The translations under genes were made by a program, and so were the position numbers. Below the pieces are notes generated by a model. The model did no database searches. It was not told the DNA's origin and saw nothing but the letters and a program-made list of their open reading frames with translations. A stretch of 64,000 bases of DNA from positions 69,832 to 133,831 of the forward strand of contig CAOJUB010000003.1 in the NCBI GenBank assembly GCA_948443805.1, read 5' to 3'. Origin of the DNA: an uncultured Clostridia bacterium. GTDB taxonomy: Bacteria; Bacillota; Clostridia; Oscillospirales; UBA644. Positions within the stretch are counted from its first letter, which is position 1, and each line of letters starts with the position of its first letter. Shown piece after piece: positions 3,453-61,120 of this stretch.

Positions 3453-4094
3453 ATGGTGAAAACAGAAATTCTATCGGTTTCTGATTTGATTTTTTTCGAT
3501 ACGAAACCAATTCTTGAGATCAAGATCGATTATCCGCAGATTCAGGGGTTTATGCCGGATCGGGCGGAAAAACGGATCAATTCCTTTTTTGAAAACGATG
3601 CAAAACGGCAGAACCGAACGGCGCGCACTGTGCTTGCCGTAAAGGCAAAAGAAGCGTATCTTTACAGCAGGGAAAACGCCTTTCCGTTTCATTTGTGGTC
3701 ATATTTGCAGACGGTGGAGGAGACCTTTTCCGGAAGAGACAAGTGGTCGCTGTATGCCGACCGGTATGTTTACAGCGGGGGCGCGCACGGAGACACAATC
3801 CGGCGCGGATTTACCTTTTCTTTGAAAACCGGCCGCCGGCTTTCGCTTTCCGAAGTTTGCCCGGTCGGACAGAAAGAAATACTTGCTTCGGTCGTTCAGG
3901 AAATCCGCCGCAGCGAAGAGGGCATTTATTTTGAAGATGCGGAAATGCTTGCCGTGCGAAATTTTGATCCGAAAAATTTTTATCTGACAAAGGAAGGCGT
4001 GACGGTTTTTTATCCACTATATACCATTGCGCCTTATTCTTCGGGTATCCGGGAGTTTCTTATTCCCTGCTTCCGGGAAAACGGAGACCATTGA
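3453..4094 (+). CDS. DUF3298/DUF4163 domain protein (RsiV/PdaC-like fold)
   Basis: 213-aa ORF containing the YSGGAHG motif typical of DUF3298. Confidence 0.65.
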   Translation: MVKTEILSVSDLIFFDTKPILEIKIDYPQIQGFMPDRAEKRINSFFENDAKRQNRTARTVLAVKAKEAYLYSRENAFPFHLWSYLQTVEETFSGRDKWSLYADRYVYSGGAHGDTIRRGFTFSLKTGRRLSLSEVCPVGQKEILASVVQEIRRSEEGIYFEDAEMLAVRNFDPKNFYLTKEGVTVFYPLYTIAPYSSGIREFLIPCFRENGDH

Positions 4095-4109
4095 AAAAGA
4101 GTTTCAAGA

Positions 4110-4787
4110 TTATCGGTTTTTCAGCAGCAGTTCCGCCAGCAGAAGATCGTCGTCGGTTGTGATTTTGATATTTTCATAACTGCACAAACAGGTTTTAATC
4201 GGAATTCCGTGTTTTTCTGCGATCGAACAGTCGTCGGTAAAGTCGGCAAGCCGGTCTTTTTCCGCCTCCATCGCGGATAGGATTTGTTCTTTTCGGAAGA
4301 TCTGCGGGGTTGCTGCTTCGAACAGGGCGTCGCGTTTGGGAGTGAAAGCGATAAATCCGTTTTTGTCTGTTTGTTTGACGGTGCTTTTCGGTTTGGTTCC
4401 GCAGCATACTGCGCCGGTTTGATACGCAAGGCGAACGGCGCGGTCGATCTCTTCCGGTTGAATTAACGGCCGGGCGCCATCGTGAATGGCGACAAATTCA
4501 CTTTGAGGGTCGGCGGCGAGAATGCCGTTTCTTGCCGATTCTTCCCGGCAGGAGCCCCCTTCGGTAATGCAGGCGATTTTCTCGATGGTAAGCGTCCGGA
4601 CAAACGCGGCGATTTCTTCATTGGCAACAAGAATGATTTCGCTGACCGTTTCGGCTTTGTCAAACGCCGACAGGGTTCTTTCTATCACGCTCTTTCCGCC
4701 GATCAACGCCGTCTGCTTATTCGTGACGGCTGTCATCCGTGTTGCTTTTCCGGCGGCGAGCAGGATTGCCGATGTAAAATGTTTCAT
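4110..4787 (-). CDS. ispD: 2-C-methyl-D-erythritol 4-phosphate cytidylyltransferase
   Basis: 225 aa. N-terminal ILLAAGKATRM nucleotide-binding motif and family-typical length. Confidence 0.9.
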   Translation of the reverse strand: MKHFTSAILLAAGKATRMTAVTNKQTALIGGKSVIERTLSAFDKAETVSEIILVANEEIAAFVRTLTIEKIACITEGGSCREESARNGILAADPQSEFVAIHDGARPLIQPEEIDRAVRLAYQTGAVCCGTKPKSTVKQTDKNGFIAFTPKRDALFEAATPQIFRKEQILSAMEAEKDRLADFTDDCSIAEKHGIPIKTCLCSYENIKITTDDDLLLAELLLKNR

Positions 4788-4824
4788 TATTTTCCCCCAA
4801 TATGCTGCGTATCTTTTCCCGGAA

Positions 4825-5153
4825 AGAAGCGCAGGCTGTTTTTTGTTGCGATATCAAATTTGCGCCGAAAAAAAAGCGGTTATCCGGAACGGAGATTCAA
4901 CCGGAGGGTTGAAAGGCTTTTTTTAGAAGAACAGCTTGCTGTGTTTTTTGTTGCGATATCAAATTTGCGCCGAAAAAAAGCGGTTATCCGGAACGGAGAT
5001 TCAACCGGAGGGTTGAAAGGCTTTTTTTAGAAGAACAGCTTGCTGTGTTTTTTGTTGCGATATCAAATTTGCGCCGAAAAAAAGCGGTTATCCGGAACGG
5101 AGATTCAACCGGAGGGTTGAAACGCTTTTTTTAGAAGAACAGCTTGCTGTTCT
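4825..5153. repeat. Three head-to-tail copies of a 104-105 bp unit, each ending in an AGAACAGC..GCTGT dyad remnant
   Basis: The TTTTTTG unit landmarks fall at 4839, 4944 and 5048. The copies differ by one A in an A-run and a G/C change at 5123. A perfect 18-bp palindrome AGAACAGCTTGCTGTTCT sits at 5136-5153. Confidence 0.9.
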
Positions 5154-5155
5154 TT

Positions 5156-5184
5156 ATTGTACCACGGAAAGATTTTTCTGTCAA
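5156..5184 (-). promoter_or_regulatory. Sigma-A-type promoter reading toward ispD
   Basis: On the minus strand: TTGACA (5184-5179), 17-nt spacer, TACAAT (5161-5156). Then AA, then the 18-bp palindrome. Confidence 0.6.
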
Positions 5185-5206
5185 TATGGATTTCACAAAA
5201 AAAACC

Positions 5207-5235
5207 TTGATTTTTCAGGATAAATACGATATAAT
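5207..5235 (+). promoter_or_regulatory. Sigma-A-type promoter for the ymdB-like gene
   Basis: TTGATT (5207-5212), 17-nt spacer, TATAAT (5230-5235). Confidence 0.6.
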
Positions 5236-5286
5236 ACAAAATGTATAGGAATAAACTGGAATTTTTCGGAAAAAGAGGATACAGGA

Positions 5287-6042
5287 TTGAGGACCTTATT
5301 TATCGGAGATATTGTCGGTCCGGCCGGAATCGAGTTTACCGCCAGACTTCTGCCGGGATTGATTCGGGAGGAAAAAATTGATTTTGTAATCGCCAACGGC
5401 GAGAATTCCGCTCTTCACAACGGCATTACGCCTGCGGGCGCAGAAACGCTCCGGTATGCCGGTGTGGATGTGATTACGCTGGGCAATCATGCGTTCCGGC
5501 AAAAAAGCGGCTGCGATTTGATGTATGAGTGCGGATATGTCATCCGGCCGGGGAATTTTCCTTCGGAAGCGCCGGGACAGGGAACTGCTGCGGTGGACAC
5601 GCCGTTCGGCAGGGTTGGCGTAATCAACGCGATGGGTCAGCTGTATATGATCAGCTGCGACAATCCGTTTACCTTTGCGAAAAAAGCGGTGGAAAAACTT
5701 TCTGACTGCGATTATATTTTTATGGATTTTCATGCGGAAGCCACCAGTGAAAAGCAGGCGATGGGGTTTTATCTTGACGGAAAGATTACCTGTTTTTTCG
5801 GAACGCATACGCATGTACAGACCAATGACTTTCGTATACTGCCGAAAGGCAGCGGCTATATTTCCGATGTGGGAATGGTCGGCGGCAGAAATTCTGTTCT
5901 CGGCGTTTGCCCGGAGGGGCCGGTAAGCCGTTTTGTTACCGGGCTTCCGGCGGCTTTTGCACAGGCGGAGGAGGATTTGTCGTTCTGTTCGGTGATTTTT
6001 GATTCCGAAACCAAAGAAATGATTCCGAAAAATATTACCTGA
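5287..6042 (+). CDS. ymdB: YmdB-family metallophosphoesterase (2',3'-cyclic-nucleotide 2'-phosphodiesterase)
   Basis: N-terminus MRTLFIGDIVGPAG, plus GNH and GTHTH metal-ligand motifs. TTG start with AAAGAGGA upstream. Confidence 0.8.
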   Translation: MRTLFIGDIVGPAGIEFTARLLPGLIREEKIDFVIANGENSALHNGITPAGAETLRYAGVDVITLGNHAFRQKSGCDLMYECGYVIRPGNFPSEAPGQGTAAVDTPFGRVGVINAMGQLYMISCDNPFTFAKKAVEKLSDCDYIFMDFHAEATSEKQAMGFYLDGKITCFFGTHTHVQTNDFRILPKGSGYISDVGMVGGRNSVLGVCPEGPVSRFVTGLPAAFAQAEEDLSFCSVIFDSETKEMIPKNIT

Positions 6043-6120
6043 ACGCCTGCGGAGATTTTCAGCTGTGCAGGAAGAAAAACAGAGCAGAACGGTTTTCTGC
6101 TTAGAAAGGTCGGTTTCAAC

Positions 6121-6768
6121 ATGAAAATAGCGCCTTCGCTTCTGGCAAGCGATTTTAACTCGCTCTGCGATGAAATACAGAGCGTTTCCTGCGCGGATCT
6201 TCTTCATCTAGACGTGATGGATGGAATTTTTGTCCCGAATATCTCTTTCGGTCTTCCGGTGATTTCTTCTATCCGGAAAAAGAGCGATATGCTTTTTGAC
6301 GTGCATCTGATGATTACTGAGCCGGAGCGGTATCTTTCCGAATTTGCAGCGGCCGGCGCCGATTATATCACGGTTCATCAGGAAAGCACCGAACGAGCTG
6401 CGGAATGTCTGAAAACCATCCGGTCTCTGGGAAAAAAGGCGGGGCTTTCGGTCAAACCCTTAACGCCGGTGCAGGAGATTTTTCCGCTGCTTCCGCTTTG
6501 CGATCTGGTTTTGGTTATGACGGTTGAACCGGGTTTCGGCGGACAGAAATTGATTCCGGACTGTCTGGAAAAGGTCCGGCTGCTGGCCGACCGGAAAAAA
6601 GAGACAGGCCTTTCATTTTTGATTGAAGCCGACGGCGGTATCGGCGGGGAGAACCTTTCGTATGCCGCTTCTTTCGGTCTGGAGGCTGCGGTGATGGGGT
6701 CGGCACTGTTCCGTTTTGCACCGGAGCGCCGCGCTGAAGAGATTCATAAATTGCAGGCAATCGGCTGA
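6121..6768 (+). CDS. rpe: Ribulose-phosphate 3-epimerase
   Basis: IAPSLLASDF...LHLDVMDGIFVPNISFG...VEPGFGGQ motifs. 215 aa. Confidence 0.92.
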   Translation: MKIAPSLLASDFNSLCDEIQSVSCADLLHLDVMDGIFVPNISFGLPVISSIRKKSDMLFDVHLMITEPERYLSEFAAAGADYITVHQESTERAAECLKTIRSLGKKAGLSVKPLTPVQEIFPLLPLCDLVLVMTVEPGFGGQKLIPDCLEKVRLLADRKKETGLSFLIEADGGIGGENLSYAASFGLEAAVMGSALFRFAPERRAEEIHKLQAIG

Positions 6769-17194: not shown

Positions 17195-17932
17195 TTGATG
17201 CAGAAGATACTGAGCCCTCTGCGCCGTGCGGTGGAGGATTATGATATGATAGCCGACGGGGAACGGATTGCCGTCGGGGTTTCGGGAGGTAAGGATTCGG
17301 TCACGCTTCTTGCCGCGCTGAAGAGGCTTTCTCTGTTTTATCCGAAACATTTTGAAGTGATCGGCATTACGCTGGATACTGGTATAGACGGTATGGATTT
17401 TTCTCCGTTGGAACGTTTTGCCAGAGAGGCGGATATTGAACTTCATGTGATAAAAACGAATATCAAGCAAGTAGTTTTTGATATCCGAAAAGAAAGCAAT
17501 CCCTGTTCTCTCTGTGCGATGCTCCGCCGCGGGGCTTTGCATGATGCGGTTAAGGAACTGGGCGTCAATAAACTGGCGCTCGGCCATCATTATGACGATG
17601 TCTCCGAAACCTTTATGCTGAATCTGATTTATGAGGGGCGGATTGGTTGTTTCCGGCCGGTGACCTATCTGGACCGCAAGGAGATTACCGTGATACGGCC
17701 GCTGATTTATGCAACGGAAAAAGAAGTCCGCGGCTGCGTTGCAAGAAATTCTCTTCCGGTCGTTCATAATCCCTGCCCGGCAAACGGAAAAACCGAACGC
17801 GAGGGAATGAAGCGTCTTTTGCAGGAGCTGGAAGACCGGTATCCCGGTGTAAATAAACGAATTTTCGGCGCCTTGCAGCGTTCCGGGATCGACGGTTGGC
17901 AGGAAAGCGTTCGGGGAAGGAAAAAAAAGTGA
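17195..17932 (+). CDS. ttcA: PP-loop ATPase, TtcA-like tRNA 2-thiocytidine biosynthesis protein
   Basis: SGGKDS PP-loop (VGVSGGKDSVTLL), CSLCAMLRRG and CPANG cysteine motifs. Start is TTG 17195 or ATG 17198. Confidence 0.72.
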   Translation: MMQKILSPLRRAVEDYDMIADGERIAVGVSGGKDSVTLLAALKRLSLFYPKHFEVIGITLDTGIDGMDFSPLERFAREADIELHVIKTNIKQVVFDIRKESNPCSLCAMLRRGALHDAVKELGVNKLALGHHYDDVSETFMLNLIYEGRIGCFRPVTYLDRKEITVIRPLIYATEKEVRGCVARNSLPVVHNPCPANGKTEREGMKRLLQELEDRYPGVNKRIFGALQRSGIDGWQESVRGRKKK

Positions 17933-17949: not shown

Positions 17950-17978
17950 TTGAAAAAAGACGGGAATTATGGTATAAT
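17950..17978 (+). promoter_or_regulatory. Sigma-A-type promoter upstream of the alpha/beta hydrolase leader
   Basis: TTGAAA (17950-55), 17-nt spacer, TATAAT (17973-78). Confidence 0.7.
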
Positions 17979-17979
17979 A

Positions 17980-18123
17980 AAGAACAACAAGTTGTTCTTA
18001 GGAAAAAAGCGTTTCAACCATTCGGTTGAAGTTCCGTTTTGGATAACCGCTTTTTTCTGGTGCGAAATTCATGTGGTAGAAAAAGAACAGTAAACTTGTT
18101 CTCAAGAACAGCAAGCTGTTCTT
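17980..18123 (+). repeat. Single copy of the ispD-leader element, flanked by three AGAACA-N6/7-TGTTCT dyads
   Basis: Dyad A lies at 17981-17998, the core element at ~18004-18072, dyad B at 18084-18102 and dyad C at 18105-18122. The core aligns with the reverse complement of the 4825-5153 unit. Confidence 0.8.
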
Positions 18124-18131
18124 TGGAGGGG

Positions 18132-18821
18132 ATGATGTCAATTTCTCTTTTCTATATAGAACAAGGTTCGGGAGAGCCGCTCATTCTTCTGCATGGAAAC
18201 GGCGAAAACGGCGCTTATTTTTCTAATCAGATATCGTTTTTTTCCAAACGGTACCGGGTGATCGTGCCGGATACCCGGGGACACGGTCAATCGCCGCGGG
18301 GAACCGCCCCCTTTACTCTGGCGCAGTTTGTCGAAGATCTTTGCTCCTTTATGGATGAGCATGCCCTTCCAAAAGCAAATCTTCTCGGATTTTCCGATGG
18401 GGGGAATATCGCGCTTCTTTTTGCTTTGCGGTATCCGGAGCGGGTGTTGAAACTGGTTCTGAACGGGGCGAATCTTTCTCCTTCCGGGGTGAAGGCCTCT
18501 TTTCAGATTCCTATTATAATCGGTTATCAGATCGCATCGTTTTTCGGGCGTTGGCGTGATGAAGCAAAAAAACATGCGGACATGCTTGCGCTGATGGTCA
18601 AAGAACCGGATATCCGCCCGGAACAACTGAAAACGGTTGCGGTTCCTGCGTTGGTTATTGCCGGAACACGGGATATGATTAAGGAAAAACATACCCGGCT
18701 GCTTGCGGCGAGTTTGCCGGATTCCTCCTTGGTGTTCATTCCGGGCGATCATTTTATCGCCGCAAAAAAAACTGCGGCCTTTAACCAGGCTGTATTTGCG
18801 TTTTTAGATCAGGACTATTAA
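18132..18821 (+). CDS. Alpha/beta-fold hydrolase
   Basis: LILLHGNGENG, a nucleophile-elbow-like GFSDGG, and C-terminal GDH. ATG 18132 follows GGAGGGG. The ORF-track start at 18039 lies inside the repeat element. Confidence 0.8.
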   Translation: MMSISLFYIEQGSGEPLILLHGNGENGAYFSNQISFFSKRYRVIVPDTRGHGQSPRGTAPFTLAQFVEDLCSFMDEHALPKANLLGFSDGGNIALLFALRYPERVLKLVLNGANLSPSGVKASFQIPIIIGYQIASFFGRWRDEAKKHADMLALMVKEPDIRPEQLKTVAVPALVIAGTRDMIKEKHTRLLAASLPDSSLVFIPGDHFIAAKKTAAFNQAVFAFLDQDY

Positions 18822-60364: not shown

Positions 60365-60562
60365 ATGATAGATAAAACAAAAGGGGAGATGCCGCTCGGT
60401 TTCGGGATGGCGTTAGCACAGAACGAAGCGGCAATGCAGGCATTTTCATCGTTGTCGGCGGAACAGAAAAAAGACTGCCTTGCAAAGGCAAAAAAAGTTT
60501 CGTCAAAGGACGAGATGACGGCTCTTGTCGACAGTTTATCCCCGACAAGAACAGAAGGTTAG
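60365..60562 (+). CDS. Small hypothetical protein (65 aa)
   Basis: AAAGGAG SD before the ATG and a strong terminator after it. No family recognised. Confidence 0.4.
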   Translation: MIDKTKGEMPLGFGMALAQNEAAMQAFSSLSAEQKKDCLAKAKKVSSKDEMTALVDSLSPTRTEG

Positions 60563-60565
60563 AAA

Positions 60566-60598
60566 GAACCCCGGAGCATTTGCTCCGGGGTTCTTTTT
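60566..60598. terminator. Bidirectional terminator
   Basis: GAACCCCGGAGC (60566-77) pairs with GCTCCGGGGTTC (60582-93), then T5. AGAAA lies on the other side. Confidence 0.8.
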
Positions 60599-60634
60599 CA
60601 GAATATCTGTTTTTCCGCAGATATTTTTTTTGCT

Positions 60635-61120
60635 TTATGCATCATCATGTAAACGGTAATCAATTCTGTCGCGGTCGAGCCGGAGAACGGCATATTCCCC
60701 CCGGCAACCGACAGAGCCCGGGTTGAGCAGCAGAATCCCGTTTTTATCATATTCTGCAAATTGCCGGTGCGTATGGCCGAAAAGAGCGGCCTGACAGTTT
60801 TTTTGCTTTGCCGATAACGAAAGCGGAAGCAGCGTTTGCTTGACGTTGTATTTGTGACCGTGGCAGACAAGAAGGGATAGGTTGTCTTCACGGAAAATTT
60901 TTTCATACTGCGGTTCCGGAAGAAAATCGTTGTTTCCGGTAACTGTTATGATTTTTTCCTGCGGAAAAAGACGGGAAATCATACGGATATCGTCTTCCAC
61001 ATCCCCCAGAAACAGAATCCGGTTGTGCGGAACAGAGGCAATGATTTTTTCCATGCCGGAAATCCGGTGATGGGAATCTGAAAAAACAAGAATCGTTGTC
61101 AAAGAAAAAGTCTCCTGCAT
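60635..61120 (-). CDS. YfcE/MJ0936-family metallophosphoesterase
   Basis: ILVFSDSHH, FLGD, GNND, CHGH and GHTH metal-binding motifs in order. ATG 61120. The ORF-track extension to 61420 lacks any motif. Confidence 0.8.
   Translation of the reverse strand: MQETFSLTTILVFSDSHHRISGMEKIIASVPHNRILFLGDVEDDIRMISRLFPQEKIITVTGNNDFLPEPQYEKIFREDNLSLLVCHGHKYNVKQTLLPLSLSAKQKNCQAALFGHTHRQFAEYDKNGILLLNPGSVGCRGEYAVLRLDRDRIDYRLHDDA

Follow-up and report, generated by a model that had tools for sequence, protein, structure and literature searches.

The ispD locus contains three tandem copies of a structured unit

The window analysed here is a 64-kb stretch of DNA from an uncultured Clostridia bacterium, in which ispD, a normally essential gene for a committed step of the 2-C-methyl-D-erythritol 4-phosphate (MEP) pathway, lies divergently to a ymdB-like gene. 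The region between the two genes is occupied by three head-to-tail copies of a 104-105 bp unit, and it is this unit that is the subject of the present study. A first-pass annotation, made from the letters alone, had read the three units as attenuator- or riboswitch-like modules in a leader preceding ispD. We show below that the unit is a previously undescribed repeat without a relative in the collections that we searched, and argue that it is probably a lineage-restricted, terminator-like dispersed repeat that underwent tandem amplification within the leader of ispD. The features of the locus are as follows.

4110-4787, minus strand: ispD coding sequence, an open reading frame (ORF) with the Pfam domain PF01128 (IspD)
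About 4792-4799, minus strand: ispD ribosome-binding site
4821-4838, minus strand: degenerate repeat of the palindrome loop and right arm (CAGCCTGCGCTTCTTTCC, compared with CAGCAAGCTGTTCTTCT), at the end of the array on the ispD side
4837-5150, minus strand: tandem array of three head-to-tail 104-105 bp units, delimited by Tandem Repeats Finder and the shared junction
4846-4926, minus strand: unit c, nearest to ispD; module and spacer, a GCC variant that has T8; 91.6 bits with covariance model R1
4951-5030, minus strand: unit b; module and spacer, GCC variant; covariance model R1, 96 bits
5055-5134, minus strand: unit a, nearest to the promoter; module and spacer, laid out as A7-GCG, hairpin 1, hairpin 2, CGC-T7, then CGGCGCAAATTTGATATCGCAAC; covariance model R1, 99.2 bits
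5135-5154: palindrome P, AAGAACAGC-tt-GCTGTTCTT, with arms of 9 bp separated by a 2-nt centre
5156-5184, minus strand: predicted ispD promoter, -35 TTGACA (5184-5179), 17-nt spacer, TG-extended -10 TACAAT (5161-5156)
5287-6042, plus strand: divergent ymdB-like gene, an ORF with PF13277 (YmdB), with its own promoter-like site at 5207-5235

Tandem Repeats Finder reported the array with a period of 104, 3.0 copies, 99% matches and a score of 612, the sole strong array in the window, and a second repeat search recovered the same interval (4837-5150) with unit spacings of 105 and 104. As the first-pass annotation had stated, the copies differ at only two places. The A run at 4866-4873 has eight A residues, while that of the other two units has seven, and position 5123 is occupied by C where the corresponding positions 4915 and 5019 carry G; in the transcribed sense, the outer stem consequently has GCG in the unit nearest to the promoter, while units b and c have GCC. 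The hairpin motif of the unit is found four times in the window against an expectation of 0.33.

The same early reading had placed a near-consensus promoter on the minus strand and had seen none better that was closer to ispD, and both points were confirmed. The site at 5156-5184 matches 11 of the 12 consensus positions and is the sole minus-strand promoter-like site that a scan of 4000-6200 returned; neither the scan nor reading of the sequence disclosed an internal promoter between the last unit and ispD. Its equivalent (TTGACA, 17 nt, TAAAAT), together with much of the flanking sequence, is kept in two related species, the IspD proteins of which are 67-69% identical to that of the window. 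Conservation of both hexamers and of their spacing makes it very likely that this is the real ispD promoter. Because no other promoter-like site lies nearer to ispD, the units should be transcribed with the gene in a leader of ~360 nt.

Palindrome P, read with transcription (5154-5135, AAGAACAGC-aa-GCTGTTCTT), begins 2 nt past the -10 element. Its earlier description as an 18-bp perfect palindrome was right in substance, the two 9-bp arms and the 2-nt centre amounting to 20 bp in total; it can also be described as 7-bp arms around a 6-bp asymmetric centre. The sequence folds as an 8-bp hairpin, and P would form either a hairpin at or near the 5' end of the transcript or a site recognised in DNA. 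Perfect matches to P are found in the window only at 5135, 17980 and 18104, and 13 matches with up to three mismatches were observed against 3.7 expected.

Several other features touch the array. Two plus-strand ORFs, 4482-5030 (182 amino acids) and 4522-4926 (134 amino acids), run antisense across the ispD start into the array; both are almost certainly spurious, though automated gene callers might annotate them. A PdaC/DUF3298 gene (plus strand, end at 4094) converges on ispD (minus strand, end at 4110) across a 15-nt gap without a clear terminator, so that read-through on the plus strand would cross ispD antisense and enter the array. The plus strand of the array carries three canonical-looking terminators at 4896, 5000 and 5104. 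We also considered whether the unit encodes a leader peptide and rejected this, given that neither ATG nor GTG is present on its sense strand and that a unit of this length shifts the frame.

The number of units varies among near-identical assemblies

Contigs encoding IspD or neighbour proteins identical to those of the window, with DNA identities of 99.6-99.9%, were compared with respect to the number of units preceding ispD.

L001 (ERZ13410455): 1 unit
L002/L037 (GCA_965619005.1): 1 unit
L038 (ERZ13410457): 2 units
Window: 3 units
L003 (ERZ13410438): at least 2 units; contig begins inside the array
L044 (ERZ4221984; IspD slightly different): at least 3 units; contig begins inside the array
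L036 (ERZ28572728): at least 2 units, plus a 100-N scaffold gap within the array
L004, L020 and L045: contigs break off within the array

The head-to-tail unit number therefore differs among close strains in the manner of a variable-number tandem repeat (VNTR), with the reservation that a single-copy allele may be a collapsed array. Because L038, L003 and L044 independently hold two, at least two and at least three units, the tandem arrangement is not an artefact of one assembly. The existence of arrays of two, three and at least three units is thus secure, and their exact distribution is less firm owing to possible collapse. The unit-to-unit junction (...AAAAAACA|CAGCAAGCTG...) is common to all of the arrays, having been found in L003, L036, L038 and L044 in addition to the window. 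Because every array carries the identical junction, the comparison points to a single founding duplication at ~1 nt of microhomology, which would have been followed by gain and loss of whole units.

These results bear on two statements of the first-pass annotation. The likeness of the copies had been ascribed to either recent duplication or strong constraint; because the unit number varies among assemblies that are 99.6-99.9% identical, recent duplication accounts for it, and strong constraint is not supported by a locus having one, two, three or at least three units. Secondly, variable unit number in related strains, coupled with a lack of effect on expression, had been named in advance as counting against a leader function. 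The copy-number part of this statement is what we found.

A fourth copy resides in the leader of a hydrolase gene

The first-pass annotation had mentioned a further copy outside of the array. Such a copy does exist at about 17968/17980 to 18084, in the opposite orientation, between ttcA (17195-17932) and a gene encoding an alpha/beta hydrolase.

17950-17978, plus strand: predicted hydrolase gene promoter, TTGAAA, 17 nt, TG-extended TATAAT, 11 of 12 consensus positions
17980-17999: palindrome P1 (AAGAACAACAAGTTGTTCTT), left edge of a 121-nt insertion/deletion
18000-18079, plus strand: fourth module and spacer, within the 5' leader of the hydrolase gene; 89.9 bits with covariance model R1
18085-18123: palindromes P2 (imperfect, AAGAACAGTAAACTTGTTCT) and P3 (AAGAACAGCAAGCTGTTCTT, perfect, 18104-18123), just before the ribosome-binding site GGAGGGG
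18132-18821, plus strand: alpha/beta hydrolase gene (PF00561, PF12146, PF12697)

The fourth copy is 86% identical to the ispD unit over the palindrome and the module (85.7% over 77 nt by blastn), and the likeness of the ~80-nt module lies at about 80-86%. The order of elements at the hydrolase locus is like that at the ispD locus, with a strong promoter, a palindrome, and a module and spacer, which are followed here by two palindromes and the ribosome-binding site. P2 and P3 stand back to back and can be folded jointly as one long hairpin that ends 1-2 nt before GGAGGGG. In one contig (L029), the otherwise perfect P3 has a C-to-A change (AAGAAAAGC...).

A sister lineage, represented by contigs L030-L033 from four independent samples (hydrolase 93% identical; flanks 97% and 91.5% identical), has the identical hydrolase promoter, one palindrome and the ribosome-binding site, without the module; its sequence reads ...TGGTATAATAAAAAACAACAAGTTGTTCTT|TGGAGGCTATGATG. 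By comparison, the window has 121 additional nt between GTTGTTCTT and TGGAGG, bounded by two palindromes, P1 forming the left edge and P3 the right. Because the empty allele has its own junction sequence, it cannot be the result of assembly collapse. The outgroups were uninformative as to whether the event was an insertion or a deletion, the distant hydrolase orthologues (67%) being located inside operons without a leader.

A third locus and the census of copies

The third locus is a diverged module and spacer that lies ~6 kb to the left of the window (L037:2596-2680) and is also present in L036 and L038. It is positioned between an htrA-like protease gene and a convergent Lactamase_B gene, 11 nt past the Lactamase_B stop codon, and is preceded by the strong terminator of the htrA-like gene itself (L037:2553-2597). 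We found no promoter, no palindrome and no evident flanking repeat at this copy.

The covariance model R1 was built from five distinct copies and used to search 134 kb. The members that it identified are at three loci, namely the ispD leader, the hydrolase leader and the convergent intergenic site, within ~84 kb of this genome (the window extended by 10 kb on each side), together with one copy in a related species described below; it matched nowhere else in the 134 kb. The density suggests tens of copies per genome, if so small a sample may be extrapolated. Neither blastn-short nor the covariance model detected further copies in the window. The next best hit, at 60561-60635 (20.6 bits), was rejected as a family member because it is an ordinary double terminator. 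It consists of two adjoining terminator-like hairpins (AAGAACCCCGGAGC...GCTCCGGGGTTCTTTTT, then AATATCTG...CAGATATTTTTTTT) between a Metallophos_2 gene and a small ORF, and the outer arms of the first (AAGAAC/GTTCTT) resemble the palindrome, which is probably a coincidence.

The palindromes that flank the units

Two moderately close relatives of the window IspD (69% and 67% identity) were found among 5.8 billion proteins, the next being only ~51% identical, and the scarcity of close relatives indicates that the window derives from an isolated lineage of uncultured Clostridia. We refer to the window species as species A and to those with the 67% and 69% identical IspD proteins as species B and species C, respectively. 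The divergent ymdB-ispD arrangement is kept in both. Species B has a homologous, much diverged module behind the same ispD promoter (ispD leader at L009:2797-2940). Its palindrome, GAATCAAAAGAC-tctac-GTCTTTTGATTC, differs in sequence from P and is located at the same place after the -10 element; it spans 29 nt, and a second copy of its loop and right arm is found 95 nt downstream with 93% identity over 29 nt. Species A shows a degenerate version of this layout, with CAGCCTGCGCTTCTTTCC at 4838-4821. Hence the succession of palindrome, module and half-palindrome is constant, although the sequence of the palindrome differs between species B and A, having changed in concert at the two places. Species C has the same ispD promoter followed by a plain leader of ~60 nt that contains neither palindrome nor module.

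One hypothesis that arises from these flanking sequences is that P is a recombination or hairpin-recognition site, and that exchange between two P sequences excises, inserts or amplifies the unit, leaving one P behind. The filled and empty hydrolase alleles differ exactly by the stretch between two direct repeats of P, of which the empty allele keeps one; perfect P sequences are found only beside units in ~84 kb; all P sequences have their centre, CAAG, oriented alike; and the species B module is flanked by its own palindrome and a second copy of the right half. However, the third copy is without P, no recombinase was identified, and a plain deletion between two 20-bp direct repeats accounts equally well for the empty allele. 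Furthermore, the tandem junction at ispD falls inside the left arm of P with ~1 nt of microhomology, a configuration that illegitimate duplication fits better. We therefore regard such a cassette as unlikely. Equally improbable, in our estimation, is an extension of the idea by which P-bounded cassettes are placed immediately downstream of promoters, and amplified there, through palindrome-directed recombination or hairpin targeting, so that the copy number (1 to 3+) would serve as a heritable and reversible dial on read-through into ispD. If this were true, the strand-specific, covarying three-way junction of the unit would be a functional RNA part and not junk.

Alternatively, P might be the operator of a repressor common to ispD and the hydrolase gene, with the module a mere passenger between operator copies. 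P is situated at or just past the predicted transcription start of both promoters, and the sister lineage has it between the -10 element and the ribosome-binding site; its half-site may resemble the SinR motif, GTTCTYT. Against a LexA or SinR operator stand a spacing that does not fit GAAC-N4-GTTC and the different palindrome of species B. An unrelated palindrome at the same place in species B and none in species C fit a conserved hairpin better than a protein site, and there are neither further P sites in the 84 kb nor a regulator gene adjoining either locus. An operator function of P is thus very unlikely.

The fold of the unit appears conserved, and the proposed switch is not supported

Folding of the leader gave each unit an outer stem, A7-GC(G)/(C)GC-U7, around two hairpins, UUCAACC/GGUUGAA and UCCG/CGGA. 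This is the anatomy that had been proposed from the sequence, and it is upheld by compensatory changes as well as by folding. When the three helices were imposed on the alignment of five copies, 91.4% of the cells formed standard pairs, whereas only 35-57% did so in a control in which the 3' partners were shifted by one to three columns. Seven of the 21 pairs are altered on both sides, and none of the four core pairs of hairpin 2 is the same in species A as in species B. The alignment, which holds four independent lineages, is indicative of a fold conserved across diverged copies. Three G-U pairs can form on the strand running from the A run to the T run and none on the opposite strand, which gives a weak hint that the former, as RNA or as single-stranded DNA, is the strand that matters. 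There is no conserved unpaired core, the loops being CUCC or AUUC and UUC or UUU. An anti-Shine-Dalgarno role for the CUCC loop of hairpin 1 was ruled out on the grounds that both the hydrolase copy and species B have AUUC as this loop.

Several of these properties would be expected if the units formed a regulated leader, in which a metabolite or an RNA-binding protein switches each unit between an anti-terminator and a terminator, and three in series sharpen the control of ispD. The units appear to be transcribed in a leader behind a conserved promoter, their fold covaries, a T7-8 run follows the structure, the G-U pairs are confined to the sense strand, and the two leaders and species B agree in the orientation of the module. 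The mechanism depends, however, on the competing terminator stem (CGGTT...AACCG) that had been proposed as mutually exclusive with hairpin 1, and this stem did not withstand folding of the minus-strand leader. In the RNA, CGGUU/AACCG has a free energy of -6.4 kcal/mol, compared with -10.6 kcal/mol for the two hairpins and -18.3 kcal/mol for the closed form, and is thus ~4 kcal/mol worse than the hairpin it would have to displace. Its pairing probability was 0.005 with the U tract withheld, and it was missing from the suboptimal folds within 3 kcal/mol. In species B, only two of the five alternative-stem pairs are possible, and there is no overlap of hairpin 1 with the terminator-like stem.

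The distribution of the module leads in the same direction. The sister lineage dispenses with it in the hydrolase leader, as does species C in the ispD leader; one of the copies is found, with no promoter, in the gap separating two convergent genes; and the number of units varies among near-identical strains. Together with the lack of an unpaired core and of any Rfam match at E <=10, the weak alternative stem and the dispersed, variable copies do not bear out the attenuator or riboswitch that the first-pass annotation had placed before ispD, and we consider such a leader improbable.

The relationship of the unit to transcription termination is less straightforward. The U7-8 tract follows a stem of only three G-C pairs that closes a three-way junction, with a closing probability of 0.36. 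A simple scan detected the canonical terminator signature on the antisense strand of both ispD and the hydrolase gene and not on the sense strand, an arrangement that fits the need for read-through into the normally essential ispD. The third copy departs from this strand rule. It also differs in position, lying at the 3' ends of convergent genes, while the ispD and hydrolase copies lie in 5' leaders.

It could also be envisioned that promoter, 5' hairpin P, module and T run constitute a small RNA gene that yields an RNA of ~80 nt, with ispD and the hydrolase gene being expressed by read-through only. Both leader copies do directly follow a strong promoter and are succeeded by a T run ~80 nt downstream, and the conserved fold with its strand-specific G-U pairs would suit an RNA product. 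Neither units b and c nor the third copy possess a promoter, though; the simple scan found no canonical terminator on the sense strand; and efficient termination would starve the normally essential ispD, for which no other promoter was found. For these reasons a small RNA gene seems most unlikely.

Database searches

Searches with Rfam 15 yielded no match at E <=10 in 4000-6000 and only chance-level matches for the other copies, and no family reached its gathering score anywhere in the 64-kb window. The latter includes the region upstream of infC-rpmI-rplT (~15.9-17.1 kb). An L20 leader is common at that position in Firmicutes. Genome collections were scanned with the pattern TTCAACC-N3-6-GGTTGAA-N5-25-ATAACCGC, which is too strict for diverged members and would miss the third copy. 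The scan of GTDB representative genomes, a set that does not contain this species, gave four matches, all attributable to chance, in unrelated Proteobacteria and Acidobacteria. Among the 12 matches in JGI metagenomes, one was real, being the same ispD leader on a 1.1-kb contig, and IMG/VR gave none. The array was also without a blastn match in phage and plasmid records. Membership in an already described repeat family, which had been named beforehand as an outcome that would argue against a leader function, was not found in Rfam or in the other collections searched.

With respect to MITEs (miniature inverted-repeat transposable elements), the copies are dispersed (three loci in ~84 kb) and filled and empty sites are observed, both in the hydrolase alleles and between species B and C. 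Inverted repeats form the ends of the module, AAAAAAAGCG(T)TT and, on the opposite strand, AAAAAAAGCG(G)TT, as they would in any bidirectional terminator. The stretch that is present or absent reaches past the module ends to the palindromes, and no target-site duplication of the 2-10 bp typical of MITEs was seen, the filled site having on either side a 20-bp palindrome, and the two palindromes having no more than TGTTCTT in common at the crossover.

Discussion

The explanation that we favour, and which we think is probably correct, is that the unit is a lineage-restricted, terminator-like dispersed repeat comparable to the SPRITE and BOX repeats of pneumococcus, and that it was tandemly amplified in the ispD leader. 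The ~80-nt module and spacer, when single-stranded, would fold into an A-run/T-run-plus-GC stem around two short hairpins and so assume a shape like that of a bidirectional terminator. One copy may originally have resided between the conserved ispD promoter and ispD. A second could have arisen by illegitimate duplication with ~1 nt of microhomology at the junction ACA|CAGC, after which slippage or unequal exchange between the 104-bp repeats would generate strains with one, two, three or more units, making the array a VNTR. The units appear not to sense a signal. Most likely, they act passively through partial termination, pausing or altered mRNA stability, and any effect on expression, which we infer along with the mode of spread, would scale with the number of units.

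Some observations do not sit easily with this explanation. We found no transposase, no clear terminal inverted repeats and no short target-site duplication in the ~84 kb sample, and the term "dispersed family" relies on only three loci, which is a small sample. The modules that follow promoters all have the same orientation and come directly after a promoter-proximal palindrome, so that random insertion alone is insufficient to explain their placement. Approximately 25 nt past the T run are also conserved, which a terminator-like repeat does not explain. Finally, the single-copy alleles could be short-read collapses of an array, since the distinguishing sites within the units are further apart than the usual assembly k-mers and a one-unit contig could thus represent several units.

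The analysis removes a tempting reading, that of three riboswitch-like modules controlling a gene of the MEP pathway. What is uncovered in its place is an undescribed, small, structure-conserving and probably terminator-like repeat of uncultured Clostridia, caught in the act of amplification in the leader of a normally essential gene. If the copy number changes ispD expression, the locus would offer a natural example of expression being tuned from strain to strain through a variable tandem repeat in a 5' untranslated region. There are practical consequences as well, given that the locus breaks or collapses short-read assemblies (five contigs end there and one scaffold is gapped) and might be used as a strain marker. 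The link between the unit and a promoter-proximal palindrome, together with the single palindrome left at the empty site, hints at an unrecognised way of spreading.

Several known kinds of element invite comparison. In tandem riboswitches and attenuators, for example tandem glycine riboswitches and T-box leaders, structured modules likewise stand in series between promoter and gene. Those modules are old, diverged copies that are conserved across species and have ligand-binding cores and competing terminator and anti-terminator stems, in contrast to the present units, which are 99% identical, variable between strains and without a competitive alternative fold. Minisatellites of the mycobacterial interspersed repetitive unit (MIRU) type, which are used for VNTR typing, offer a further parallel: they have units of 40-100 bp, are intergenic within transcription units, are found at several loci, and vary among strains in tandem number, as does the repeat described here. 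MIRUs contain short reading frames that are coupled to the genes on either side, whereas the length of 104 or 105 in the present unit breaks the frame, there is no start codon, and the conserved feature is secondary structure.

The closest counterparts, judged by architecture only, are two repeats of pneumococcus. SPRITE is a dispersed terminator-like repeat described in 2011 (PMC3049150). Like SPRITE, the unit is a small, dispersed intergenic repeat with a predicted stem followed by a U-rich tract and the look of an atypical terminator; it is found near gene ends, and its presence or absence differs between strains. Nothing indicates that the two share sequence, and they reside in different hosts (uncultured Clostridia versus Streptococcus). 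The unit is a three-way junction closed by an A/U-plus-GC stem, whereas SPRITE is an 18-bp duplex; SPRITE is enriched at 3' ends, whereas the unit resides in 5' leaders at two of the three known loci; and the unit, unlike SPRITE, forms tandem arrays. The BOX element of S. pneumoniae is composed of boxA, a variable number of boxB and boxC, the tandem modules varying among strains, and BOX modules have been reported to raise or lower the expression of downstream genes (PMC3049150). The unit differs from BOX in the length of the module (104 bp versus 45 bp for boxB), in having no related insertion sequence that we could find, in being amplified at one of three loci only, and in that no equivalents of boxA or boxC were identified, unless the palindromes serve as such. 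The unit and BOX are both modular dispersed repeats with an internal module that is present in tandem, the number varying between strains and loci, and BOX elements are often transcribed with the neighbouring genes, as the units before ispD should be.

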